Sequence record: PZ386958.1
Reading direction: 5' to 3' (one strand)
DNA length: 64,000 nt
From: a phage
Position numbers and translations under genes: made by a program. Positions 1,610-54,111 of this stretch are shown here, one piece after another. The number at the start of each line of letters is the position of its first letter. Positions within the stretch are counted from its first letter, which is position 1. The notes beneath the pieces are model-generated. The model had not been told where the DNA came from, did no database searches, and saw only the letters and a list, made by a program, of their open reading frames with translations.

Positions 1610-3085
1610 GTGAGAAGAATGGCAGATATTACAGAAACACAAGAAAGCTTACCACCATTTAGAATGGGTGAAGTAGGTTCTTTGGGTCTGAAGGTTAAGA
1701 ATGGAAGAATCTATGAAGAACCTCGTCAGGCACTAAGGTTCCCTGAAAATATTAAAACTTTCCAATTAATGATGCGTGACCCTGCTGTAGCAGCATCTGT
1801 AAATATTATTAAGATGTTTGTCAGAAAAGTCAACTGGAGATTCGTGCCTCCAAAGGGAAAAGAGCAAGACCCTAAAATGCTTGAAAGGGCAGACTTCTTT
1901 AATTCTTTAATGGATGACATGGAGCATGATTGGGCAGATTTTATTAACTCTGTAATGTCATTCTGCACTTATGGGTTCTGTGTTAATGAGAAAGTTTATA
2001 AGAAGCGTCAGGGTAAAAAAGGAAAGTACCAGTCAAAATTTGATGATGGTCTAATTGGATGGGCTAAATTACCAATCAGAAACCAATCAACACTTGATAA
2101 GTGGTATTTTGACGAAGACTTTAGAAAAGTTACTGGTGTTAGACAGAATCTGAGGAATGTTTCACATATTGCTGGAGCAATTAATCTCGGAGAAAGACCA
2201 CTAACAAGAAAACTTCCACGAGCTAAATTCATGCTGTTTAAGTATGACGATGAATATGGAAACCCAGAAGGTCGTTCACCATTACTTAATGCTTATGTAC
2301 CGTGGAAGTATAAAGTTCAGATTGAAGAGTATGAAGCTGTTGGTGTTTCAAGAGACTTGGTAGGGATGCCAAAGATTGGCTTACCACCAGATTATCTGGA
2401 TGAAAATGCAGAACCTGAAAAGAAAGCTTTCGTACAATACTGCAAAACTGTTGTTAATGATATGATTGCTAACGACAGAGCAGGTTTAATCTGGCCTAGA
2501 TATATCGACCCAGATACTAAAGAGGATATTTTTGAGTTCTCATTAGTTTCTAGACAGGGTGCTAAAGCATATGACACAGGCTCTATCATTGACAGATATT
2601 CCAAGCAGATTATGATGGCATTTATGTCAGATGTTCTTGCTATGGGTCAATCAAAATATGGTTCATTCTCTCTTGCAGATTCTAAGACAAGCTTACTAGC
2701 AATGTCAGTAGATGTTCTGCTGAAGCAAATTAAGAACGTAATTAACCGTGATTTAGTTGCACAGACTTATGCTCTTAATATGTGGGACGATGAAGAACAT
2801 GTACAAATCACATATGATGATATCGAAACCCCAGACCTTGAAGTAATTGGTTCTTATATCCAGAAGACTGTTGCAGTAGGTGCTTTGGAAGTTGACAAAG
2901 AGCTATCTAACAAGCTTAGAGAGCATATTGGTCTTCCTCCTGCTGATGAGTCTCAGCCAGTATCTGAAAAGCTTTCTCCAAATAGTCAAAGCCGTTCAGG
3001 AGATGGCTATAAGACCGCTGGAGAAGGTACTGCAAAGACACCTTCAGCGAAAGACCCAAGCACAGCAAATAAGGCAAATAAATAA
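1610..3085 (+). CDS. portal protein (putative)
   Basis: 491 aa ORF immediately after the large terminase and upstream of the prohead protease; call from synteny and size only. Confidence 0.5.
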   Translation: MRRMADITETQESLPPFRMGEVGSLGLKVKNGRIYEEPRQALRFPENIKTFQLMMRDPAVAASVNIIKMFVRKVNWRFVPPKGKEQDPKMLERADFFNSLMDDMEHDWADFINSVMSFCTYGFCVNEKVYKKRQGKKGKYQSKFDDGLIGWAKLPIRNQSTLDKWYFDEDFRKVTGVRQNLRNVSHIAGAINLGERPLTRKLPRAKFMLFKYDDEYGNPEGRSPLLNAYVPWKYKVQIEEYEAVGVSRDLVGMPKIGLPPDYLDENAEPEKKAFVQYCKTVVNDMIANDRAGLIWPRYIDPDTKEDIFEFSLVSRQGAKAYDTGSIIDRYSKQIMMAFMSDVLAMGQSKYGSFSLADSKTSLLAMSVDVLLKQIKNVINRDLVAQTYALNMWDDEEHVQITYDDIETPDLEVIGSYIQKTVAVGALEVDKELSNKLREHIGLPPADESQPVSEKLSPNSQSRSGDGYKTAGEGTAKTPSAKDPSTANKANK

Positions 3086-3585
3086 TGGCTGAAGTTATCT
3101 CTATTTCAAATGCTACACGAGTGCATTCGTATAGAGGTGTTCTTATCATTACTGATAAGTTATCTGTAGAGGCTGGCTCAAGGGTCAGCCTTTCAGGTTA
3201 TGTAAGTGATGGTGGAACCTCTGACGTTTTCACTATTTGCAGGTTACTTGATGCTCCAATGAGTGGAAAACCGTTTATTTTAGGAAATTGTAGTGAAATT
3301 GTTAAAATTCCATTTGACAGTTCATGCCTTTTGGGTGTAAAGTTATATAACTGCGAGAATAAACGTATCAATGTTAATAGCATTGAAGCCGCTTTCATTA
3401 CCCTCGACACTGCATTTCAATCTCCAATGACAGTTAATAAAGAAACAAACAGACTTGAGTACATTTTTTCACAAAATGATTACAAAGTACTTGTCAAAGG
3501 TAAAGTATATGGTATGATTGTAAATGTGGTAGATGAATCTGGTAACCATTCAACAGTCCTTAAACAAAAAGTAAGGTTTAATTAA
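3085..3585 (+). CDS. hypothetical head-module protein
   Basis: 166 aa ORF, start overlaps the upstream stop (ATGA). Confidence 0.3.
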   Translation: MAEVISISNATRVHSYRGVLIITDKLSVEAGSRVSLSGYVSDGGTSDVFTICRLLDAPMSGKPFILGNCSEIVKIPFDSSCLLGVKLYNCENKRINVNSIEAAFITLDTAFQSPMTVNKETNRLEYIFSQNDYKVLVKGKVYGMIVNVVDESGNHSTVLKQKVRFN

Positions 3586-3917
3586 TGGGAACATTAACTA
3601 TTGATGGTAAGAATAAAATCCTCGCCACGCTAACCCCAACGACTATTATTTTACACAATGTAGACCCAACGGCAGACCCTACAGCAAATAAGGTTACTCA
3701 GCCAGTGGCTATTTATTTTTCTGAACCGGATAATGGCTTAATTGCCTCAGAAGACACAGTTAACATTACTGTCCCAGCTTCTGCAACGGTCTCACACTAT
3801 AGCTTGTGGGATGCTAACGATAAATGCGTGGCAACTGGTGCTCTTAGCAAACCTCAATTCTTTGCTGAAGAAGGTATCTATGTTATCTCTTCAGTCTCTG
3901 TAGATTTAAACAAATAG
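3585..3917 (+). CDS. hypothetical head-module protein
   Basis: 110 aa ORF, start overlaps the upstream stop. Confidence 0.3.
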   Translation: MGTLTIDGKNKILATLTPTTIILHNVDPTADPTANKVTQPVAIYFSEPDNGLIASEDTVNITVPASATVSHYSLWDANDKCVATGALSKPQFFAEEGIYVISSVSVDLNK

Positions 3918-3928
3918 GGTGAGTAAAA

Positions 3929-5275
3929 ATGAGTTCGAATATCTTCAGACTTGCTGATAGATTATTCAACCAACCTTTACTAGCCACTGAATCATTAGCT
4001 CACTCAGCAGCAACTTATGTGAATAACAGATTGCTGGGTGATGTCCAAGCAGCAGTAAACTTTGATAAACCCAAAGGTGAAGCAAGAAGTCTTTTAAAAG
4101 TAAAAGATGACATTGCTATTATCCCTATTATGGGTGGTTTAACCCATCGTATGACATTCATTGATGCAATGTGTACAGGTGGATTAAGCTCTTATGAGGG
4201 TTTACGTAGAGGCTTTGACGAAGCTTTAGCAGATGAGTCAATTAAGACTATCGTTCTGCACATTGATTCTGGTGGTGGTGAAGCTTCAGGTTGCTTTGAA
4301 TTAGCACGTCACATTATGGCTTCAAGAGGCCAAAAGAAAATTATTGCTTATGTAGATGAGTTCGCTTGTTCCGCTGCATATGCTCTTGCATCTTCTGCTG
4401 AAGAAATTATTGCATCACCAGATGCAGATGTTGGTTCTATTGGTGTAATTATGGTTCATCAGGAATTAACTAAGGCATTTGAAAAGAATGGCGTAACAAT
4501 TAACGTCATCAAAGCTGGTGAGTTTAAAGGTATGGGTTCACCATTCCAAGCACTTTCAGAAGAAAGCAAAGAAAGACTTCAAAAGAGAATTAATGATACC
4601 TACGCAACCTTTACAGGTTTTGTAGCTGAATCTCGTAATCTCTCTGAAGAAGCTGTAAAGAATACTGAGGCGAATGTTTATTCTGCTCAGGAAGCTCTTG
4701 AACTTGGTTTAATTAACTCAATCATGTCTCAAGATGATTTCTTAAATTACTTACAAGGTTCTGAAGAGGCTCCTGTAAGTTTAAACGTTAACAATTCAGG
4801 TGAAGAAATGACTGAACAAGAAAAGCAAGAACTAGAAGCTTTGCGTCTTCAGGTTGCTCAAATGAAAGCTAAAGAACAGGAAGCTGCTTTGTCAGATTTG
4901 ACTAATAAGATTTCTGCTTCTGCTGAAGCTTTTGGGTTTGATGCAAAAGAAGCTGCAACGACTATTTTAGGTGCTGGTCTTGATAACCCTCTGAGCGTTC
5001 TGTTTATGAATGCTATGGAAGGTGCTAACCAGAAACTTAATGAAACTATCGCATCCCATACTTCTGCAATGGAAGAAAAAGAATCAGAAATTACCAAGCT
5101 AAAAGAAACTGCTGGTGCTGTTCTTGAACATTCCAACGCTATGGAAGAAGTGGGTAATGACGGCGAAGCTGATTTGGTTGAAGAAGAAAAAGAACCAGCT
5201 AAGAATGCTTCCGAAGACACCGCTGAACAACGCAAACTGGCTCTCCAGAATGCTCTAAAATCTCTTATCAAATAA
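3929..5275 (+). CDS. prohead serine protease (S49/SppA-like) with C-terminal coiled-coil scaffold-like domain
   Basis: S49-like core (IVLHIDSGGGEASG ... DEFACSAAYALASSAEEI ... GSIGVIM) followed by a Glu/Lys/Ala-rich coiled-coil tail; sits between portal and capsid. Confidence 0.65.
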   Translation: MSSNIFRLADRLFNQPLLATESLAHSAATYVNNRLLGDVQAAVNFDKPKGEARSLLKVKDDIAIIPIMGGLTHRMTFIDAMCTGGLSSYEGLRRGFDEALADESIKTIVLHIDSGGGEASGCFELARHIMASRGQKKIIAYVDEFACSAAYALASSAEEIIASPDADVGSIGVIMVHQELTKAFEKNGVTINVIKAGEFKGMGSPFQALSEESKERLQKRINDTYATFTGFVAESRNLSEEAVKNTEANVYSAQEALELGLINSIMSQDDFLNYLQGSEEAPVSLNVNNSGEEMTEQEKQELEALRLQVAQMKAKEQEAALSDLTNKISASAEAFGFDAKEAATTILGAGLDNPLSVLFMNAMEGANQKLNETIASHTSAMEEKESEITKLKETAGAVLEHSNAMEEVGNDGEADLVEEEKEPAKNASEDTAEQRKLALQNALKSLIK

Positions 5276-37946: not shown

Positions 37947-38993
37947 ATGGAGAAGTACACGCTAACAAAACTTCCCGATTCAGTTACACATGTCTTTATT
38001 GACTCTGATAGTATTGCCTATAAAGGTGCTTGTGTAGTTGAGAAAGCAAAATATAAGTATGTCAATAAACTCACAGCAGAAGAATCTGAACCATTTGATA
38101 ATGCAAAAGATGCCGCAAGATGGTTAGCAGACCAGAGAATCCTTGTAGAAGAGCTTGGCCTAGCATTTGATGAAGATGAATGGGAAAGACAGACTTGGAA
38201 AGAAGCTAAGAGTGAAAAAGAAGCTATCATGGCTACTCAGCAGGTTCTTCAGGAATGGCTTAAGGTTGTTGGTAAAGAAAGAACTTGGGTAGGTTATTTA
38301 ACAGAGAAGGGTGTGCATAAACATAAAGACATTAAAGGTCTTGAGCACCAATATCAAGGTAACCGTAAAGATGCCGTCACACCAACACACTTAGTCGCTT
38401 GTCGTGAATACCTTCTGTCAAGACCAGAGTTTAAGCTGATTCTTGATGGATTTGAAGCTGACTCTATCGTAATTGCTAAAGCTGAAAAGATGGGTAAAAA
38501 GGCTGCCTTAATGAGTATTGATAAAGACCTTCGACAAGCTGAAGGTACTTACTGCATTGATATGACCTATGAAAAATCACCTTTAATTTTTATTGCTGAT
38601 AACAACGTTGGTGAAATTTGGGATTGCCCAATAAAATCGACACCAAAAGCTAAGAAGACAGTTGGGGTAGGTTTTAAATTTCTTTGTTATCAAGCTGTGT
38701 CTGGTGATAATGCAGATAACTATTTTGGTTTAAAGGGCGTTGGTAAGGTTGCTGTAATGAAAGCCCTTGAGGGTAAAACCACTTACAAAGAGTGTCTTGA
38801 TGCAATTTATGAGCTTTATGCTAAGAAAGAGTCATACACTTATGTCTCGTGGGATGGTCAAACAATTACCAGAACACCCTTAGAGCTAATGCAGCAACAT
38901 TTCTGGATAGCTTATCAGGAAAGAAATAAGAAAGATGATTTCACTTTTGATAAGTATGGGTGGACACCAAATGTTAACTCAACAAACTCTTAA
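37947..38993 (+). CDS. 5'-3' exonuclease (T7 gp6 / FEN-like)
   Basis: Acidic-cluster pattern typical of FEN/5'-3' exonucleases (FIDSDSIAYKG, ILDGFEADSIV, MSIDKDLRQ, VSGDNADNYFGLKGVGKV). Confidence 0.6.
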   Translation: MEKYTLTKLPDSVTHVFIDSDSIAYKGACVVEKAKYKYVNKLTAEESEPFDNAKDAARWLADQRILVEELGLAFDEDEWERQTWKEAKSEKEAIMATQQVLQEWLKVVGKERTWVGYLTEKGVHKHKDIKGLEHQYQGNRKDAVTPTHLVACREYLLSRPEFKLILDGFEADSIVIAKAEKMGKKAALMSIDKDLRQAEGTYCIDMTYEKSPLIFIADNNVGEIWDCPIKSTPKAKKTVGVGFKFLCYQAVSGDNADNYFGLKGVGKVAVMKALEGKTTYKECLDAIYELYAKKESYTYVSWDGQTITRTPLELMQQHFWIAYQERNKKDDFTFDKYGWTPNVNSTNS

Positions 38994-39471
38994 AGAGTAC
39001 CTACACTATGACCCCGAAACAGGGGTCTTTACTTGGTTAGTTGATAGAAAAGGTAAGGCCAAAGCTGGTTCAGTGGCAGGTGTTAAACACCATAGTGGTT
39101 ATATCTATATAAAACTCCTCGGAAAAAGATATGGAGCACACAGGCTGGCCTTCTTATACATGAAAGGCTACCTCCCAAAATTTGTTGACCATAAGAATTG
39201 TATCAGGTATGACAACTGGTTCGACAATTTGAGAGAATGTAGCAGGTCAGATAATAACTGTAATGCAGTCAAAAGAAGGGATAATAAGTCTGGCGTGAAG
39301 GGTGTATACTACCACAAGCTAACAGGTAGGTGGGCTGCACAAGTTAAGCATAATAAGGTTTGCTATCATCTAGGTCTGTTTGACTCTGTTGCTGATGCTG
39401 AATCAGTTGTCAAAAAGAAAAGAGAAGAACTACATAAAGAGTTTTCAAATCACGGAGAAGCTTATGAATGA
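38971..39471 (+). CDS. HNH homing endonuclease with AP2-like DNA-binding region
   Basis: YDPETGVFTW, KRYGAHRLAF, VDHKNC, DNLREC, SGVKGVYY, ELHKEF; paralogous to 51784..52275; start taken at the ATG at 38971. Confidence 0.7.
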   Translation: MLTQQTLKEYLHYDPETGVFTWLVDRKGKAKAGSVAGVKHHSGYIYIKLLGKRYGAHRLAFLYMKGYLPKFVDHKNCIRYDNWFDNLRECSRSDNNCNAVKRRDNKSGVKGVYYHKLTGRWAAQVKHNKVCYHLGLFDSVADAESVVKKKREELHKEFSNHGEAYE

Positions 39472-45751: not shown

Positions 45752-47896
45752 ATGAACAAAGTACAGATTATTAAAAAGAATGGCTCACTTGAAGAACCTG
45801 ATATCAAAAAAGTTTTAGCAGCAGTAACTAAGTCAGCTAACAGGGTTGGTTATAAAGAACTTCCACCAGATGTTACCCAAGCTCTTGAGTCAGCATTTAT
45901 GAGGATTCTGGTAAAGTCCACTAAGCAGAATAATTTGCTCATCTCGGTAAATGACATTCACAGTATTGTTGAGGGTGCTTTGGCAGAAGTCAACCACGAG
46001 ATTTACGAGTCTTACTCAACATATAGAAATTACCGTAAAGAGGTTGCTCAAAATTGGGATGAGCTTTACCAAAAGACTAGAGATACACTCTTCTTAGGTG
46101 ACCGTGAAAATGCTAACTTTGACAGTAGTCTAATTTCTACAAAAGGTTCAATTATTCGTGGTTATCTGACTAAAGAAATCTTTAAGCAGTACCATTTAAC
46201 ACCAGAGGAACTTGAAGCCATTGAAAAAGGGTTTATCTATATTCATGATTTAAGAGACCTTATTTTTGGTGGTATCAACTGTTGCCTGTTTGACATTGGT
46301 AAAGTACTAAAAGGTGGCTTTGAGATGTCTGGAATTGAATACTGTGAACCGAAGTCTGTGCTGTCAGCCTTACAGGTTATTGGTGATGTAGTTCTTTCAG
46401 CAACTGCACAGCAATTTGGCGGCTTTACTTTAGCAGAGCTTGATAAGGTACTTGTACCGTATGCTAAGAAGTCTCTACGTTACCATGCTGAGAAAGCAGC
46501 ATCTTATGGTATTCCTAAAGAACATTACCATAATTATGTCATGGAGCAGCTACAGCTTGAATTGACTCAAGGTTTTCAATCACTTGAGATGAAACTAAAT
46601 ACTGTACCTTGCAGCCGTGGTGATTTTGCATTCACAACTTTAACATTTGGTTTACTTGACTCAGACATGTCTAATGAAGACAACCGGCTACAATACATGA
46701 TTGCAAACACTATTCTTGATGTTCGTATGAATGGACAAGGTAAGAGTAAGAAGCCTGTTGTATTCCCTAAACTGGTTTATATTTATGACCAGAAGAGACA
46801 CGATGAGAATATCTGTCAAGGCCAACTGTACAGTAAAGCTATTGAGTGTTGCTCTAAAGCAATGTATCCAGATTTCTTAAGTGTATCTGGTCATGGTGCT
46901 GTAGCAGAGGCTTTTGAGCGTTCTGGCAAGGTAATTTCACCGATGGGTTGCAGAGCTTTCTTATCCCCATATCTTAACGAGAATGGAGAAGAGTTCTACG
47001 TTGGTCGTGCTAACATTGGTGCTGTATCTTTGAACTTACCAATGATTTACCAGTATTCTAAAGAGAATGGTTTAGATTTCTGGAAAGAGCTTGATAAGTA
47101 CCTAGAGATGATTCGCAGCTTCCACAAGAAACGCTACGAAATGATTGCTAATATGCCAGCAAGTTCTAACCCTCTTGCATTCACACAAGGTGGTCTGTAC
47201 AAAGGGACTAAGAAACCTACTGACAAGGTTGGTTGGGATATCGTGAAGTCCTTCACAGCTTCTTTTGGGGTTACTGCGCTTGATGAGTTATCTGTTCTTG
47301 CTGAAGGTAAACGACTTCATGAAGTTGGAAGTTCTAGTTTTGCATACGATGTTCTGGCATACATTAACATGAAAACTGAAGAGTTTAAGAATGAAGATGG
47401 CTTCCTGTATGCAGTATATGGCACTCCAGCAGAGTCATTGTGTGGAACTCAGCTAAAACAGTTCAGAGATATGTTTGGCGTTATCAAAGGTGTTTCTGAT
47501 AAGGAATACTTTACAAACAGTTTCCATATGAATGTTGCAGCAGATATCTCACCATTTGAGAAGCAGGACTTAGAAGAACCATTCTTCCATATCTGTAGAG
47601 GCGGCAGAATCCAGTATGTAAGGGTAGCTAACCCAGAAAACTTAACAGCACTTAAAAGTTGTATTACAAGAGGGATGTTGAAAGGTTTCTATCAGGGACT
47701 TAACTTTGACTTAGCAATCTGCGAACATTGTGGCAACAGACCAAAGGCTGATGTTGAAGAATGTGAGGTTTGCCATTCACATGACATCTCTGTGATTAAC
47801 AGAGTGTGTGGGTATCTTGGGTGGACTAAGATTAAAGGTGAATCCCGAATGAATGATGCAAAAATTGCTGAGATTCGTGATAGGGTTTCTATGTAA
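45752..47896 (+). CDS. nrdD: anaerobic ribonucleotide reductase (class III)
   Basis: C-terminal zinc ribbon CEHCGNRP ... CEVCHSHD followed by the glycine-radical region RVCGYLG; 714 aa. Confidence 0.85.
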   Translation: MNKVQIIKKNGSLEEPDIKKVLAAVTKSANRVGYKELPPDVTQALESAFMRILVKSTKQNNLLISVNDIHSIVEGALAEVNHEIYESYSTYRNYRKEVAQNWDELYQKTRDTLFLGDRENANFDSSLISTKGSIIRGYLTKEIFKQYHLTPEELEAIEKGFIYIHDLRDLIFGGINCCLFDIGKVLKGGFEMSGIEYCEPKSVLSALQVIGDVVLSATAQQFGGFTLAELDKVLVPYAKKSLRYHAEKAASYGIPKEHYHNYVMEQLQLELTQGFQSLEMKLNTVPCSRGDFAFTTLTFGLLDSDMSNEDNRLQYMIANTILDVRMNGQGKSKKPVVFPKLVYIYDQKRHDENICQGQLYSKAIECCSKAMYPDFLSVSGHGAVAEAFERSGKVISPMGCRAFLSPYLNENGEEFYVGRANIGAVSLNLPMIYQYSKENGLDFWKELDKYLEMIRSFHKKRYEMIANMPASSNPLAFTQGGLYKGTKKPTDKVGWDIVKSFTASFGVTALDELSVLAEGKRLHEVGSSSFAYDVLAYINMKTEEFKNEDGFLYAVYGTPAESLCGTQLKQFRDMFGVIKGVSDKEYFTNSFHMNVAADISPFEKQDLEEPFFHICRGGRIQYVRVANPENLTALKSCITRGMLKGFYQGLNFDLAICEHCGNRPKADVEECEVCHSHDISVINRVCGYLGWTKIKGESRMNDAKIAEIRDRVSM

Positions 47897-47905
47897 AACT
47901 TGACA

Positions 47906-47944
47906 AGGTGGTGTGAGTCTTGATAGGCTTACATCACCTTTTTA
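47906..47944 (+). terminator. rho-independent terminator overlapping a TTGACAAGG motif
   Basis: 12-bp stem AGGTGGTGTGAG / CTTACATCACCT (two G-U) then TTTTT; TTGACA immediately 5' at 47900-47905. Confidence 0.5.
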
Positions 47945-48049
47945 TTGGATGTTAGATATGGCAGAGAGCATCATTGGCCTGTTCATAGGTTCTGTCTTAC
48001 TGGGGTTCTTTTTAGGACTCTCTTATTGTGAGTTGAGAGATAAGTTAAA

Positions 48050-48250
48050 ATGTTTAAAATATCAAAAACGTTGATATACATACTTCACATTCTAATCTTC
48101 TTCTTTGGAGTTAGTGTTATGGTATGGGGTTTTTCAGACCCACAATGGAGTTTCACATATCATGGTCAGATGGATTTATGGTCATGCTTCAAACCATTTT
48201 TAGGGTTAGCTATAGCATTCAGTGTATTGCCAACTAAGGTGAAATTATGA
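48050..48250 (+). CDS. small membrane protein (hypothetical)
   Basis: 66 aa with hydrophobic segments. Confidence 0.3.
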   Translation: MFKISKTLIYILHILIFFFGVSVMVWGFSDPQWSFTYHGQMDLWSCFKPFLGLAIAFSVLPTKVKL

Positions 48251-48642
48251 TTAAGTTGAACAAAAAACAGTTAGAGTGGATTAAAGATTACGCCTCAGAG
48301 TGTGACTCTTGCGAAAAGAATCACGTAAGATACTCAACATTCCATACGGTCTTCACATTGTACATAGGTGACAACGTTCTAAGTGATTCCGTAGAAGATG
48401 GTGTAGCGTTGCCTAATGAATTGCTTGACAAATTAGCTATAGTCACTGGAACTTGGTCTGAAGAAGACGGTCATGAATTATTTGACAATGTTGTCTTCTA
48501 CACCATTGAAAATATTATGAATCCAGAGTACATTATGCTAATGACGTGTGCACAAGACTGTGTGCCATTACAAAACTTCATTAAAGAACACTGTGAAGAA
48601 TTTATTACTAAACAAGTTCCTTGTCAGGTAGTGTTTGAATGA
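48247..48642 (+). CDS. hypothetical Cys-containing protein
   Basis: 131 aa ORF. Confidence 0.35.
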   Translation: MIKLNKKQLEWIKDYASECDSCEKNHVRYSTFHTVFTLYIGDNVLSDSVEDGVALPNELLDKLAIVTGTWSEEDGHELFDNVVFYTIENIMNPEYIMLMTCAQDCVPLQNFIKEHCEEFITKQVPCQVVFE

Positions 48643-48677
48643 GTAAAACAATTAAATAATATTGGTGAGGTAACGAG

Positions 48678-49163
48678 ATGAATTACATGGAGATTCGACC
48701 ATTTGACACAGCTAATGGTGAAGGGGTTCGGATAAGCCTCTTCGTAGCTGGCTGTAAACATCACTGTGAAGGCTGCTTTAACAGGGAGTCTTGGAAGTTT
48801 AATGCTGGTAAAGGGTTTACTTATGCAAACCTCTACGGCATCATTAAGTTAATGGATGATGAGGCCATAAGTGGGTTGTCAATACTCGGTGGAGAACCTC
48901 TGGATGATAGAAATATTCGAGAGGTCACCAACATTTGTAAACGTATTAAAACTGTTTACCCAGAAAAGTCTATCTGGCTCTGGACAGGTTTCCAGTTACA
49001 CGAAAAAATCCACCTAGATGTGATGAAATATGTTGACGTGGTGATTGATGGTAAGTATGATTCATCTAAACCAACAGTTAAACCATATCGTGGTTCAGAC
49101 AACCAAAACTTGTGGAGAAAAGAGTATGGATGGCAAGGTGATTGTCAATGGCGAGCAGAATAA
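48678..49163 (+). CDS. nrdG: anaerobic ribonucleotide reductase activating protein (radical SAM)
   Basis: CxxxCxxC cluster motif CKHHCEGC near the N-terminus; 161 aa; downstream of nrdD. Confidence 0.75.
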   Translation: MNYMEIRPFDTANGEGVRISLFVAGCKHHCEGCFNRESWKFNAGKGFTYANLYGIIKLMDDEAISGLSILGGEPLDDRNIREVTNICKRIKTVYPEKSIWLWTGFQLHEKIHLDVMKYVDVVIDGKYDSSKPTVKPYRGSDNQNLWRKEYGWQGDCQWRAE

Positions 49164-49503
49164 ATCTCGTCGTAAAATTGGCTACGGTAAAGGTGAGATA
49201 ATGATTATCTCTTTTAATAGTGCTTTATTAGGCACTTATAAGGTCAAGACCGAACTCCTTGATGAGTGGAAAAAGTATACAAACTCACTGTTCGGTAATG
49301 TTGGAATGGAAGCTTTAGCAGAGATTGAGAAGGCGGGAACATTCGAAGTTGTTGGTAAAGGCCACTTTACAATGTTCTACAGAACAAACCTAAACGTTGG
49401 TGACAGTATTGTTGGTGTCACTGAAGAAGAACTTAAAACATTTTGTGAAAAGATTGAGAGAGATACGAAATGGGAATCTGGAACAGTTTTAAATCAAAAA
49501 TAA
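49126..49503 (+). CDS. hypothetical protein
   Basis: ATG at 49126 preceded by GGAG; overlaps the nrdG 3' end in another frame. Confidence 0.3.
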   Translation: MDGKVIVNGEQNKSRRKIGYGKGEIMIISFNSALLGTYKVKTELLDEWKKYTNSLFGNVGMEALAEIEKAGTFEVVGKGHFTMFYRTNLNVGDSIVGVTEEELKTFCEKIERDTKWESGTVLNQK

Positions 49504-49718
49504 AAGCAGCACTGGCATCACTAGGTATGCTCACTGGTGTTGACGTTACTCATCTCATGCAGAACTTCAAGATGGATGAGAAACTAGCTAATGAGATTAT
49601 GGAAAGCATCTACGTAGGTCGTGGAAAAGGTGGTAAAAAACAAGCACATCGACCAACTGGTGCAGCAGCAATTAAACGTGCAGCTAAGAAAGCTCGTAAC
49701 CGTAAACGTAACAAATAA
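49470..49718 (+). CDS. hypothetical protein with basic C-terminus
   Basis: 82 aa, Lys/Arg-rich tail. Confidence 0.3.
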   Translation: MGIWNSFKSKIKAALASLGMLTGVDVTHLMQNFKMDEKLANEIMESIYVGRGKGGKKQAHRPTGAAAIKRAAKKARNRKRNK

Positions 49719-49729
49719 GGGTAGCTAAC

Positions 49730-50041
49730 ATGAAAAAGATTTATAACACTCGTAAGATTCAGATTGCAGTTCTGTGTCAGTTTATGGTTGAGCAACATAA
49801 CGCACATTATTGTGGTACGGGATTTCTAACCTTTGGTGGTGAACACATCCCATTTAAGAAAGCTGTGAAGATGTACAATGAATCTCTTGATGGTAGTAAA
49901 GAGCTAGAACAGCTTAAACTAACTTACAACAAGAAAGACAAGAAGATTGTATGTCTAAACCATTCTATTAAACCTACAAATTACATTATAAGCAACATTG
50001 GTGAAGAAGGATTCCTCAAAGTGTTGAAAATCTCACAGTAA
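49730..50041 (+). CDS. hypothetical protein
   Basis: 103 aa ORF followed by a terminator. Confidence 0.35.
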   Translation: MKKIYNTRKIQIAVLCQFMVEQHNAHYCGTGFLTFGGEHIPFKKAVKMYNESLDGSKELEQLKLTYNKKDKKIVCLNHSIKPTNYIISNIGEEGFLKVLKISQ

Positions 50042-50053
50042 GACTATATGATT

Positions 50054-50086
50054 AGGGAACTGTAAAGGTTCCCTTTTTATTTTTAT
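50054..50086 (+). terminator. rho-independent terminator
   Basis: AGGGAAC / GTTCCCT stem followed by TTTTTATTTTTAT. Confidence 0.6.
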
Positions 50087-50095
50087 GGAGGCACT

Positions 50096-50611
50096 ATGTA
50101 TCTGTCAAACCTGAAACGTTCGGCTGCAATGTCAGTTCTAAGACTCAGTTTTGAGGAACGTCAAGAGTTCATTGACTCCCACCAATACGACCCTTCTAAC
50201 TCAAATCACATGATTCTTTGGAATCGTGATAACTTCCGTGAAAGAGCACTTGTCCGTTATTACCCACACTACACAATAGACAACCTGTATGAATGGTGTG
50301 TCGTGAAGAACACTATTGCAACACTGAACAATCTTTGCAGGTATACAGGTAAGCAAACATTCACACTAGGCCATCATAAACCTGTTACAAAAGGTGGTGA
50401 GCATCACTGTGCGAACTGGTTTATCCAAACTAAAGCTGATAACCAGAAGCAAGGAGATAACCTCCTAAGCACTCCTAAGATGACCTATGAAGAGCAAGAG
50501 AAATATATCAAAAATAATATGCCAGATGTGCTTGACAACAACTATACAGATTTGGCAATATCTCTCCTGTTGAAGTTCGAGACAGTTTATAGGGCAACTT
50601 ACAATGGCTAA
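50096..50611 (+). CDS. HNH nuclease domain protein (putative)
   Basis: GHHKPVTKGGEHHCANWFIQTKADNQKQGDN resembles an HNH core (HH ... N ... N). Confidence 0.4.
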   Translation: MYLSNLKRSAAMSVLRLSFEERQEFIDSHQYDPSNSNHMILWNRDNFRERALVRYYPHYTIDNLYEWCVVKNTIATLNNLCRYTGKQTFTLGHHKPVTKGGEHHCANWFIQTKADNQKQGDNLLSTPKMTYEEQEKYIKNNMPDVLDNNYTDLAISLLLKFETVYRATYNG

Positions 50612-50882
50612 AGAGAAGTGGGAGATTTTACCACTAGTCAGTGAGGGTGGGAATGGTTGTGAAATGTACATAATACGTGGTCATGTTCCAGAACCAATTG
50701 CACTTGAGATGATAAACAATTTTACAGATGGTTCTTACAAAGATTTAGGAGAGCCAACTATAAAGCATCAATGGGTCAAACCTGTACCAGACAGCACAGG
50801 TAACTGTAGTGTACTTTATCACGTTGTAGACCCTGCAAAATGCAAATCTGCAATGGCAGTAACAAACATAACCTTTGATTGA
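50604..50882 (+). CDS. hypothetical protein
   Basis: 92 aa ORF translationally coupled to the Prs-like gene. Confidence 0.3.
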   Translation: MAKEKWEILPLVSEGGNGCEMYIIRGHVPEPIALEMINNFTDGSYKDLGEPTIKHQWVKPVPDSTGNCSVLYHVVDPAKCKSAMAVTNITFD

Positions 50883-51775
50883 GAGAGAAAACTATGAAAA
50901 CTGTTATTGAAGTCGTTGTCACCGCACAAGAGAAATTCTTCCACACAGAAAAATTTAATATCATCCAATTCCCATCTGGAGAAATTGGTGGAAACTTCTC
51001 TGAAGATTTTGTTAAGTTTACTGAGCGTAATGCTGGTAAGGTTGACAATGTTATACTTACTGTGCAGGGATATGATAAAGATACACTGTTTGCATTAGCT
51101 TTGGCTAAGGATGCCGTTGACAGTCTTGTCCCACATAAATCAGCGATGAAAACCGTTGTTTTCGGGTTCTTACCGAATGCTCGATATGACCGACATATGT
51201 TCAAAGGTGATTCAGCAGCACTGAAAGCTTTTGCCAACCTCGTTAATGCAATGGGCTTTGATGCAGTATGTGCTCTTGACCCTCACAGTAATGTTGCAGA
51301 AAACTTATTTAAGTGCTTTCAGAGCATGAAGCAAAAAGATGTGGCAGTACACTTTGCAAGTGACCCGCGCATTGATTTCTTGGTAGCCCCAGATGCAGGT
51401 GCAGCTAAGAAGACTGAAGAGACTGCTAAAGAGGTGGATAAACCATACATCACAATGACTAAAATGCGTAACCTTAAGACTGGTGAAATTACTGGTATGC
51501 GAATCCTTGATGATGTTGATTTGACCGATAAAACTGTTATGATTCTCGACGATATCTGTGATGGTGGTCGAACCTTCATAGAAGCAGCTAAACATCTTCG
51601 TGAAGCAGGTGCAAAACGTGTGGAACTCTATGTAACTCATGGCATTTTCTCTAAAGGTGTTGAAAGCTTACTTGACAATGGCATTGACCATATCTACACT
51701 ACAAACACTTTAGGTGAAGCTAAAGACCGTGGCTTAACACATTATGGCCAAGTTACTGTAGCAACCATTGATTAG
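50879..51775 (+). CDS. ribose-phosphate pyrophosphokinase homologue (PRPP synthetase fold; possibly an ADPR-pyrophosphate synthetase)
   Basis: Prs-like architecture with PRPP-binding loop MILDDICDGGRTF and an upstream ARYDRH / DPHS region; 298 aa. Confidence 0.75.
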   Translation: MREKTMKTVIEVVVTAQEKFFHTEKFNIIQFPSGEIGGNFSEDFVKFTERNAGKVDNVILTVQGYDKDTLFALALAKDAVDSLVPHKSAMKTVVFGFLPNARYDRHMFKGDSAALKAFANLVNAMGFDAVCALDPHSNVAENLFKCFQSMKQKDVAVHFASDPRIDFLVAPDAGAAKKTEETAKEVDKPYITMTKMRNLKTGEITGMRILDDVDLTDKTVMILDDICDGGRTFIEAAKHLREAGAKRVELYVTHGIFSKGVESLLDNGIDHIYTTNTLGEAKDRGLTHYGQVTVATID

Positions 51776-51783
51776 GTAACAGT

Positions 51784-52275
51784 ATGAATAAGGGTTATTT
51801 TGAAAAATACCTAATATATGAACCAGATACAGGTTTATTAATTTGGAGAGTAACCCTTTGCAGTACCGCTATTGCTGGTAATGTGGCTGGCACAAGGTCT
51901 AAGAAGGGTTATATCCAAGTCCAGATAAATAAGAAGAGGTACTATGCACATAATATTGCATGGATTATGTCTGGAGGTGAGATACCAAGTGGATATGAGG
52001 TAGACCACATAGACCTTGATAAAGCTAATAATAAGTTGGAGAACTTAAGACTTAGCACAAAGTCACAAAATCAGAGGAATAGAGGTATATACAAGAATAA
52101 TAAAACTGGTGTGAAGGGTGTAAGTTTTTGTAAACAAACAGGTCTTTACAAAGCAAGAGTCATGCTTTACCATAAAGAATACTTTTGTGGAAGATTTAAA
52201 ACGGTAGAAGAAGCAAAAGAAGCTGTAATTAAAAAGCGAATAGAACTTCATGGTGAGTTTGCAAGACATAACTAA
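51784..52275 (+). CDS. HNH homing endonuclease with AP2-like DNA-binding region
   Basis: YEPDTGLLIW, KRYYAHNIAW, VDHIDLDKANNKLENLR, TGVKGVSF, ELHGEF; paralogue of 38971..39471; inserted between the Prs-like and Nampt-like genes. Confidence 0.7.
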   Translation: MNKGYFEKYLIYEPDTGLLIWRVTLCSTAIAGNVAGTRSKKGYIQVQINKKRYYAHNIAWIMSGGEIPSGYEVDHIDLDKANNKLENLRLSTKSQNQRNRGIYKNNKTGVKGVSFCKQTGLYKARVMLYHKEYFCGRFKTVEEAKEAVIKKRIELHGEFARHN

Positions 52276-52289
52276 GAGAGAGATAAAAT

Positions 52290-54071
52290 ATGAGTAAGTC
52301 ACTTTACGCAGTACCAGCAGGTCTTAATGCAGATGCTTACAAGGCATCACATATATATCAGTATCCAGATGCTACGCAATATCTTATGTTGAACCTGACA
52401 CCACGTAGTGACAAATGGTTTAACAGTCCCTTAGCAATTGATGGTGTAGTGGCTTTTGGTATTCAACGTTTTGTTAAAGATTACTTGATAGACCACTGGA
52501 ATACCACCTTCTTTGAACGTGACAAAAAAGAAGCAATTGACGAAATCTTAGAAGTCATGAATGGTGTTCTGGGTAAAGATGCTATTGGTCGAGAACATTG
52601 GGAAGCACTTCACGACTTAGGTTATCTACCAGTTGAAGTATACGCTGTAGAAGAAGGCACAGTTGTCCCTATGCGTGTACCAATGATTGTCTTCCAGAAC
52701 ACTGTTTCGGGTTTCCATTGGGTAGCGGGGTATCTGGAAGATGCTTTCTCTGCTGAGATTTGGAAGGCTTGTACCATTGCAACTATTGCATTGCACTACA
52801 AACGTATCTGTAAGAAGTGGGCTGACCTTACTTGTGACAACGCCTTACATTTACCTTACCAGTGCCATGACTTTGCCATGCGTGGTATGTCTGGCTTTAC
52901 TGATGACGCATTTAACGCTGTAGGTCACTTAACCAGCTTTAAAGGGACTGATAGCTTCCCTGCTGTGTATACAGCTAAACGCATCTATGGACAGTCCTAC
53001 CCAATCTCTGATATTGGTAGTTCTGTACCAGCCACTGAACACTCTGTAATGTGTGCAAACATTGCTTGGGAAGGTGGTAACGAGTTGATTGAAGAAGAAA
53101 GACGCTTTAAAGGTGAGTTACAAACCTTCCGTCGTTTCTTAACAGAGACTTACCCGACTGGTATTGCAAGTGTTGTTTCAGACACTTATAACTTCTGGAG
53201 AACTGTATCAGTCATATTACCAGAACTCCGTAAAGAGATTATGGAACGTGATGGAAAACTGGTAATTCGTCCTGACTCTGGAGACCCTGTACATATTGTC
53301 ACAGGCTATAAAGCAATCCACTTAGAGTGTGCTAAAAAGGCTTATTACGAACACCTAAGCAAGCTGGAAGCCAGCGACACAATGTTGAATGCTGTTCTGA
53401 ACATGAAGCTTGAAAACATCAATTATGGTATTGCTGGATGGCTATTGTCAGAAGGCTACGAAATGGTTGTTGACAGAGAAGACTTTGAAGTTGCTGATAC
53501 AGTGCTGTTGAAAAATGCTTATATGGTTGGTTCTGCAAACGTTGTAACACGTCCTGTAGCGGAGATTGATGGAGCTATCAAGACACTGTATAACATCTTT
53601 GGAGGAACTATCAACGCTAAAGGTTTTAAAGTACTGGATGAGCATATCGGACTTATTTATGGTGACTCTATCACGTTGGAACGTGCAAACGAAATCCTGA
53701 AGCGTTTGTATGAAATGGGTTTTGCAAGCTCTAACGTAGTGTTTGGTGTAGGTTCTTACACTTACCAGTACATGACTCGTGACACCTTTGCATTTGCTGT
53801 CAAAGCAACTCTTGCAAGCATTGGTGGTAAAGAGATTATGCTTGCAAAAGACCCTAAAACAGATAGCGGTGTTAAGAAGTCTGCTTTTGGTGGTGTAGCA
53901 CCTATGTGGGATGGTGATAAACTGAAAGCTGTAGATGGCTATGGATTCCAGAGCTTTGCAGATGTGCTTGAACATCCAGCTTGTGCTTTACGTTTAGTCT
54001 TTAGCGACTCTGAGCAGTTCGGTTACACAACTCTTGGTGATATTCGAAATAATATTGACAAGCAACTTTAA
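52290..54071 (+). CDS. nicotinamide phosphoribosyltransferase family protein (Nampt/NadV-like)
   Basis: Nampt signatures DAYKASHIYQYP, LHDFAMRGMSG, FKGTDSFPAV, SVPATEHSVM, VVSDTYNFW, VIRPDSGDPV; 593 aa. Confidence 0.8.
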   Translation: MSKSLYAVPAGLNADAYKASHIYQYPDATQYLMLNLTPRSDKWFNSPLAIDGVVAFGIQRFVKDYLIDHWNTTFFERDKKEAIDEILEVMNGVLGKDAIGREHWEALHDLGYLPVEVYAVEEGTVVPMRVPMIVFQNTVSGFHWVAGYLEDAFSAEIWKACTIATIALHYKRICKKWADLTCDNALHLPYQCHDFAMRGMSGFTDDAFNAVGHLTSFKGTDSFPAVYTAKRIYGQSYPISDIGSSVPATEHSVMCANIAWEGGNELIEEERRFKGELQTFRRFLTETYPTGIASVVSDTYNFWRTVSVILPELRKEIMERDGKLVIRPDSGDPVHIVTGYKAIHLECAKKAYYEHLSKLEASDTMLNAVLNMKLENINYGIAGWLLSEGYEMVVDREDFEVADTVLLKNAYMVGSANVVTRPVAEIDGAIKTLYNIFGGTINAKGFKVLDEHIGLIYGDSITLERANEILKRLYEMGFASSNVVFGVGSYTYQYMTRDTFAFAVKATLASIGGKEIMLAKDPKTDSGVKKSAFGGVAPMWDGDKLKAVDGYGFQSFADVLEHPACALRLVFSDSEQFGYTTLGDIRNNIDKQL

Positions 54072-54085
54072 AAGTATATGATAAG

Positions 54086-54111
54086 AGGCTCCTACGGGAG
54101 CCTTTTTAATT
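54086..54111 (+). terminator. rho-independent terminator
   Basis: AGGCTCC TACG GGAGCCT then TTTTAATTT. Confidence 0.6.

Follow-up and report, generated by a model that had tools for sequence, protein, structure and literature searches.

The locus described here raises the question of whether two neighbouring phage genes, one resembling phosphoribosyl pyrophosphate (PRPP) synthetase (Prs) and the other nicotinamide phosphoribosyltransferase (Nampt), serve classical NAD salvage or counter-defence. The genes lie in a 64,000-nucleotide stretch of a Felix O1-like phage (Felixounavirus; sequence record PZ386958.1), referred to throughout as the window. The original prediction read them as a two-enzyme NAD module and raised the possibility of the NAD+ reconstitution pathway NARP1, composed of an ADP-ribose pyrophosphate (ADPR-PP) synthetase, Adps, and a nicotinamide ADP-ribose transferase, Namat, but held that sequence alone could not separate this pathway from classical salvage. 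In this instance the two were separable, because the window genes have orthologues 96-97% identical in Bas63, the phage in which NARP1 was defined, and carry the published signatures of both enzymes, namely the clamp motif of Namat and the pyrophosphate-donor (PP) loop of Adps. The locus is thus very probably a Felix O1-like version of the NARP1 operon, serving in counter-defence.

Relationship of the gene pair to NARP1

NARP1 was defined by deletion of genes 79 and 80 of the Escherichia phage Bas63 (JohannRWettstein), which reduced plating on SIR2-HerA cells approximately 20-fold and abolished NAD+ recovery; ADPR-PP was found only in wild-type Bas63 infection of defence-carrying cells (bioRxiv 10.1101/2024.02.11.579819). 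The effect was independent of host pncC or nadR, SIR2-HerA being overcome even in a pncC nadR double mutant, and the SpbetaL1 homologue made ADPR-PP with no PRPP-synthetase product (bioRxiv 10.1101/2024.02.11.579819). Under the mechanism proposed for the window phage, a host NAD-depleting defence (e.g. SIR2-HerA, Thoeris, DSR or prokaryotic Argonaute-Sir2) would cleave NAD+ to ADP-ribose and nicotinamide. Adps would transfer the beta,gamma-pyrophosphate of ATP to the terminal ribose of ADP-ribose, forming ADPR-PP, and Namat would exchange the pyrophosphate of ADPR-PP for nicotinamide, yielding NAD+ directly.

The window pair consists of true orthologues of the founding pair and not of distant look-alikes. 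Relative to the Bas63 reference genome (MZ501086.1), the Prs-like protein was identical to the syntenic Bas63_0079 at 281 of 293 positions (96%) and the Nampt-like protein to Bas63_0080 at 574 of 593 (97%), both alignments being gap-free and the lengths equal. The two operons belong to the same genus and occupy the same genomic position, with the order nrdG, small open reading frames (ORFs), gene 79, gene 80 and rIIA shared between the window and Bas63. A 5-kb query around the locus returned 259 phage records, almost all of them Felix O1-like, at 90-95% nucleotide identity. By these comparisons the system is already known, the locus being a near-identical copy of the Bas63 type example. The principal features are as follows.

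50894..51775, + strand: adps, the predicted ADP-ribose pyrophosphate synthetase (Prs-like), 293 aa (Bas63_0079 orthology, Pfam, phrog_619)
51461..51463, + strand: Adps Lys190, counterpart of the catalytic Lys185 of ICP1 Adps (alignment)
51548..51577, + strand: Adps PP loop DDICDGGRTF, aa 219-228 (aligned with ICP1 Adps D212-F221)
51784..52275, + strand: putative HNH homing endonuclease gene, free-standing, 492 nt, 163 aa (HNH_3, phrog_99)
52290..54071, + strand: namat, the predicted nicotinamide ADP-ribose transferase (Nampt-like), 593 aa (Bas63_0080 orthology, PDB and fold matches)
52413..52418, + strand: Namat selectivity-clamp loop residues Lys42-Trp43 (alignment with SpbetaL1 Namat)
53751..53783, + strand: Namat selectivity-clamp helix motif GSYTYQYMTRD, aa 488-498 (Namat consensus match)

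The adjacent Prs-like and Nampt-like genes were as originally described, forming with the HNH gene three co-oriented + strand ORFs. Adps matched PF14572/PF00156 and phrog_619, Namat matched PF04095 and PF18127, and the peptides quoted for Namat (DAYKASHIYQYP, HDFAMRGMSG, FKGTDSFPAV and VIRPDSGDPV) were all present in the 593-aa ORF, as was DDICDGGRTF in Adps. The start of the module required correction. Position 50879 is a mechanically assigned TTG that overlaps the upstream ORF's stop codon; in Bas63 and Felix O1 the gene starts instead at the ATG at 50894, which follows the ribosome-binding motif GAGAGAGA and yields the 293-aa protein. The same motif precedes the 593-aa namat ORF, and adps lies 514 nt upstream of namat with the HNH gene alone in between.

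The selectivity of Namat is described as a two-part clamp. In the selectivity-clamp helix (SCH), with the motif GSX-phi-X-phi-X-phi-TRD, an aromatic X stacks on the adenine of ADPR-PP, and a variable selectivity-clamp loop (SCL) provides a further stacking residue, either as Arg at position 3 or as Lys/Tyr followed by a stacker, Bas63 being the cited example of the Lys type (PMC12774641). The window SCH fits the Namat consensus, with aromatic residues Y490 and Y494 at motif positions 3 and 7 and with Met at phi3, where Asn or Val is usual. In the alignment, the SCH aromatic residues were not found in either of the Nampt controls, whose sequences at this position are given below with that of the SpbetaL1 enzyme.

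SpbetaL1 Namat: GSFTYQYNTRD
Haemophilus ducreyi NadV (HdNadV, the closest bona fide Nampt): GAQTYQRNTRD
Xanthomonas (Xcc) Nampt: GGALLQKVDRD

The window SCL, RSDKWFNSPL, is identical in Bas63, and its Lys42-Trp43 aligns with Arg40-Val41 of SpbetaL1, so that the clamp loop of SpbetaL1 uses Arg40 where that of the window uses Lys-Trp. The SCL also varies elsewhere in the family: in the Escherichia phage radambza (Namat locus 2394-4190) a 5-residue tandem duplication, WFNSL|WFNSP, was observed inside this loop, which contacts the adenine of ADPR-PP. All of the catalytic core residues listed for SpbetaL1 Namat were kept in the window protein (D15, Y17, F195, R198, D221, H251, R327, D329, G458, D459, T496, R497 and D498), and the alignment showed the further core positions A248, G488 and S489 to be conserved or invariant.

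Sequence and structure searches placed the Nampt-like protein nearest to the solved Namat. Its best PDB sequence match was 9w5w/9w5x (434 bits), ahead of HdNadV (357 bits), Xcc Nampt (176) and mammalian Nampt (147). The AlphaFold2 model, with a predicted local distance difference test score (pLDDT) of 91, likewise had the solved Namat as its top structural match, with a template modelling score of 0.95 on the target and a Foldseek E of 1e-53, as against 1e-46 and 1e-38 for Nampt structures. Human NAMPT, Xanthomonas Nampt and H. ducreyi NadV share with Namat the fold and the nicotinamide/ribose-phosphate chemistry; they differ in lacking the aromatic clamp residues and in preferring PRPP.

The Prs-like protein carried the corresponding signatures of Adps. 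Its PP loop, DDICDGGRTF, resembles DDICDGAASF in ICP1 Adps (Vibrio phage; sequence taken from the ICP1 genome record) more than DDMIDTGGTL in E. coli Prs. Residues D219, D220, I221, C222, D223, G224 and F228 align with D212-G217 and F221 of ICP1 Adps, in which the PP loop serves ATP-donor binding, and K190 aligns with K185, whose replacement by alanine abolishes ICP1 Adps activity (PMC13586617). In the alignment that included ICP1 Adps and E. coli Prs, the window protein retained R97, H131, D167 and K190, R97 corresponding to the conserved Arg87 of ICP1. The window, Bas63 and ICP1 Adps all stop approximately 20 residues short of the E. coli Prs C-terminus and so are missing the Prs alpha11-alpha12 filament/regulatory module; absence of this PRPS module is a feature described for ICP1 Adps (PMC13586617). 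The window protein scored 108 bits against ICP1 Adps and at most 68 bits against any solved Prs. The PDB sequence search returned no solved Adps among its matches, only canonical Prs. Sequence comparison with Adps and Namat versus bona fide Prs and Nampt, a kind of check proposed in the original prediction, favoured Adps and Namat. Overall, the window pair shares the catalytic core, SCH motif, PP loop and catalytic lysine with SpbetaL1 Namat (PMC12774641) and ICP1 Adps (PMC13586617), although ICP1 Adps is just 31% identical to that of the window.

Classical salvage is the reading given by the databases: PRPP would be made from ribose-5-phosphate by the first enzyme and combined with nicotinamide by the second to give nicotinamide mononucleotide (NMN), from which host NadR or PncC would complete NAD+. 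Pfam, PHROG and NCBIfam name the proteins ribose-phosphate pyrophosphokinase and nicotinamide/nicotinate phosphoribosyltransferase, and two NCBIfam models exceeded their curated cut-offs: TIGR01251 on Adps (135.7 bits vs 113) and NF006629, the equivalog model for nicotinate phosphoribosyltransferase (NAPRTase), on Namat (469.6 vs 405). Because these models pass, automatic pipelines keep labelling NARP1 enzymes as Prs and NAPRTase. However, the NCBIfam Prs equivalog models all failed on Adps by a wide margin (e.g. 110.9 vs a 296-bit cut-off), and the Namat-specific clamp motif is present. Together with the success of Bas63 in the pncC nadR double mutant and the products of the SpbetaL1 homologue, this makes classical salvage very unlikely. 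NARP2 (Nampt plus Nmnat, as in the NadV and NatV of KVP40) was rejected, since it needs an NMN adenylyltransferase and none was annotated in the syntenic Bas63 segments or found among the scanned window ORFs. More broadly, the claim that the window encodes no other NAD machinery agreed with the syntenic Bas63 annotation and with Pfam scans of the 57-63 kb ORFs and of the DNA ligase, which is of the ATP-dependent type.

Several observations weigh against the assignment to NARP1. In vitro, Namat is still able to make NMN from PRPP, reaching roughly half the human Nampt level (PMC12774641), so that some classical activity may persist. Bas63 Adps did not purify, and the biochemistry comes from the SpbetaL1 and ICP1 homologues, which are 31-49% identical (bioRxiv 10.1101/2024.02.11.579819; PMC13586617). 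The adenine contacts Phe18 and Phe92 of ICP1 Adps align with His17 and Met102 of the window protein, in an N-terminal region that is poorly aligned at 31% overall identity; F15 and F16 adjoin H17 in this region. Loss of the intergenic hairpin, described below, may also affect the Adps:Namat ratio. The activities and anti-defence phenotype of the window enzymes are expected to match those of Bas63.

The N-terminal half of Adps showed unusual variation in its own right. Among Felix O1-like genomes otherwise 90-100% identical, two sharply distinct allele types were observed (window 50876-51355). Residues 1-160 of the window/Bas63 type were 67-68% identical to those of the type found in Si3, skuden and radambza, while residues 161-293 were about 90% identical; at the nucleotide level, identity between types dropped to 57-82% over approximately 480 nt of the adps 5' half. 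The window/Bas63 type seems to be the minority in the phage collection, and Felix O1 Adps looks like a mosaic of both. Family searches gave two further observations. A 547-aa family, phrog_12872, matched Adps over aa 50-237 and Namat over aa 243-587, suggesting that in some phages the two proteins are fused. Families phrog_16547 and phrog_15800 correspond to the N- and C-terminal halves of Namat and point to namat genes divided in two in other phages, Certrevirus CB7 being a reported case.

The middle gene and the adps-namat junction

The gene between adps and namat had been described as an HNH-AP2 homing endonuclease that splits the module. Its position and its HNH domain were borne out: PF13392 (HNH_3) was matched over profile positions 1-46 of 46 (E 3.9e-19) and phrog_99 at E 8e-68. 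The AP2 portion, C-terminal to HNH, was sub-threshold (E 4.5e-4; 20.9 bits against a 33.3-bit cut-off). The operon is indeed divided by the HNH gene, but no gene is interrupted; the HNH gene takes the place of an intergenic hairpin. Location within an intron or within a split gene was rejected, as the ORFs on either side retain their full length and align collinearly with Bas63. The middle gene appears to be a free-standing, selfish homing endonuclease gene lodged between two intact enzyme genes, and its product is probably an active homing enzyme. A second HNH_3 ORF in the window (38989-39456, + strand) encodes a paralogue 39% identical to the operon HNH protein, with an AP2 match (27.5 bits) that is also below the cut-off.

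The junction was compared base by base at 11 loci, with the following result.

5 loci without the HNH gene: adps stop TGA; 45-47-nt spacer with hairpin GGGGCTTGAAAGCCCC and a T run
6 loci with the HNH gene: adps stop TAG; HNH gene in place of the hairpin

Bas63 belongs to the first group, its 45-nt spacer containing the hairpin (predicted to fold at -13.2 kcal/mol) and its adps ending in TGA, and thus differs from the window with its 492-nt HNH gene and TAG stop. The spacer hairpin carries a terminator annotation in phage AYO145A. The HNH element is bordered by the adps stop codon and the namat ribosome-binding site, lying 8 nt from the former and 14 nt from the namat gene, and the GAGAGAGA site of namat is kept. 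In the proposed sequence of events, the HNH gene would have invaded the intergenic spacer and displaced the hairpin without touching either enzyme gene or the ribosome-binding site of namat; with these intact and the hairpin replaced, adps, the HNH gene and namat are presumably co-transcribed.

The distribution of the HNH gene was determined with a 1.3-kb junction query. Of 234 related phage records, 62, including Felix O1, covered the query whole and hence carry the HNH gene at this site; approximately 170, including Bas63, were without it, most of these matching only the two flanks (61%). About one quarter of Felix O1-like phages would thus have the HNH gene in place of the hairpin. Felix O1-like genomes are documented to differ from one another chiefly in the homing endonucleases that they have gained or lost (PMC3728262). 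The Salmonella phage Felix O1 (NC_005282) has the same Prs-like, HNH and Nampt-like arrangement in ORF127-ORF128-nadV, with an HNH protein 90% identical to that of the window; it differs in being annotated as classical NAD salvage and in its mosaic Adps. The order also recurs in CB7_242-246 of the unrelated Pectobacterium phage CB7 (Certrevirus), likewise with a free-standing HNH gene, but there a second HNH element splits the Nampt-like gene into two ORFs (PMC7344957), whereas namat of the window is intact. Other homing endonuclease genes were noted in relatives: the Bas63 annotation joins nrdD, the anaerobic ribonucleotide reductase gene (46630-49516 of Bas63), from two pieces that enclose a homing endonuclease gene, and in Si3 such a gene lies between nrdD and nrdG.

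The middle gene might instead encode an accessory enzyme of an extended, three-gene NARP1. Functional third genes are documented in NARP1 operons, as the Macro-domain ADPR-1''-phosphate phosphatase Adpp of NARP1-AP and the glycosidase of RyDEP operons, and the middle gene of the window is intact, 90-98% conserved and tightly packed between its neighbours. Its product, however, is a standard HNH_3 endonuclease with no Macro or RyR match, and operons of the NARP1-AP and RyDEP types were rejected on this ground. Moreover, most relatives do without the gene, among them Bas63, for which a two-gene operon is enough. The gene has a paralogue at 38989-39456, and turnover of homing endonucleases is known as the main difference between Felix O1-like genomes (PMC3728262). 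A functional three-gene pathway is for these reasons extremely improbable, and the middle gene is better read as a homing endonuclease gene.

Whether such a gene is still active was considered separately. The gene could be an inactive relic or a domesticated regulator, as no cleavage site or activity is known for it and as the namat 5' haplotype of HNH-carrying loci occurs also in some loci that lack the gene. On the other side, the ORF has its full length, its HNH_3 match spans the whole profile, and it is intact and free of stop codons in six phages, the window copy being 90-98% identical to the other five. In addition, phages that differ by 20-40% in the 5' half of adps share a near-identical HNH gene and namat 5' end (98-100% in nucleotide sequence), a pattern consistent with recent lateral spread. 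A relic or regulator is accordingly considered unlikely, and an active homing endonuclease is the favoured interpretation.

Two haplotypes were observed in the first ~105 nt of namat (52290-52395), beside the HNH site. The window haplotype was common to all six HNH-carrying loci and was also present in two of the five loci without HNH, an imperfect link that at n=11 serves as a lead only. The remaining three loci without HNH (Bas63, AYO145A and Phi87) had approximately 20 clustered substitutions at the namat 5' end, so that residues 1-40 of the variant were just 82-85% identical, compared with at least 95% over the remaining protein. Eight of the 19 differences between the window and Bas63 Namat fall in the first 35 residues, adjacent to the HNH insertion site. 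In this small sample, the haplotype pattern fits co-conversion or target-site divergence.

The additional length of Namat

The Nampt-like protein had been noted as longer than is typical, with room for an extra domain. At 593 aa it does exceed the ~490-500 aa of other Namat and Nampt proteins, and the surplus of approximately 100 residues was traced to two insertions, defined relative to SpbetaL1 Namat, ICP1 Namat and enterobacterial homologues of ~496 aa.

53061..53114, + strand: Namat short variable insertion, aa ~258-275 (alignments)
53313..53570, + strand: Namat 85-aa insertion subdomain, aa 342-427 (alignments)

The SpbetaL1 and ICP1 proteins, of ~490 aa, are without either insertion. The extra length is real but not peculiar to the window phage, as Bas63 Namat, also of 593 aa, has the aa 342-427 insertion too. 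The shorter insertion differs in length among long-form homologues. The longer one was present in all homologues of ~590-610 aa, down to 46% identity, in Felix O1-like, Suspvirus-like, Yersinia, Pectobacterium and other related phages. The paper on Namat structure aligns Bas63 Namat, and its main text is silent on the insertion (PMC12774641).

Structure prediction of the extra residues, as the original prediction had suggested, gave a confident model. AlphaFold modelled aa 342-427 as a compact, small alpha/beta subdomain with a pLDDT of 92-95 in the full protein and, when folded alone, a pLDDT of 93 and a predicted template modelling score (pTM) of 0.81. No structural relatives of this predicted fold were detectable. 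The insertion is the sole part of the finding not already explained. It is a tentative and somewhat doubtful proposal that the subdomain of Ounavirinae-type Namat adds a function absent from the 490-aa enzymes, and that exchange of the hairpin for the HNH gene retunes the Adps:Namat ratio. Candidate roles for the subdomain could include allosteric control, shielding from a host-encoded inhibitor, or docking to the Adps hexamer so that the labile ADPR-PP is channelled.

The surrounding locus and its significance

Two conserved + strand ORFs lie directly upstream of adps, at 50096-50611 (phrog_3500) and 50604-50882 (phrog_4726). Neither had a Pfam domain at E<=0.001; the phrog_3500 ORF had a weak HNH-like match (E 1.8e-6). 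Both appear to belong to the adps transcription unit, judging from a promoter-like site at 50024-50052 and terminator-like hairpins at 50054-50074 and at the following position, 12 nt past the namat stop codon.

54083..54106, + strand: terminator-like hairpin 3' of namat (consensus match only: 10-bp stem, then T run)

PADLOC returned, for the locus, just weak phosphoribosyltransferase-domain matches (PsyrT/ShosT) and homing-endonuclease models, with nothing to suggest a defence system.

As an operon the locus is nothing new, being one more example of the founding NARP1 operon, in the genus where the pathway was discovered. Its practical value lies in annotation: NARP1 can be called with confidence from the 96-97% identity to Bas63 and the clamp motif, despite the labels Prs and nicotinate phosphoribosyltransferase. 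What novelty remains concerns the insertion subdomain of Namat and the population genetics of the sequence next to the homing endonuclease gene. For the study of NAD-centred conflict between phage and host, the Ounavirinae-specific Namat insertion, the consequences of replacing the hairpin with the HNH gene and the two-allele divergence of the Adps N-terminus may each provide a modest lead.

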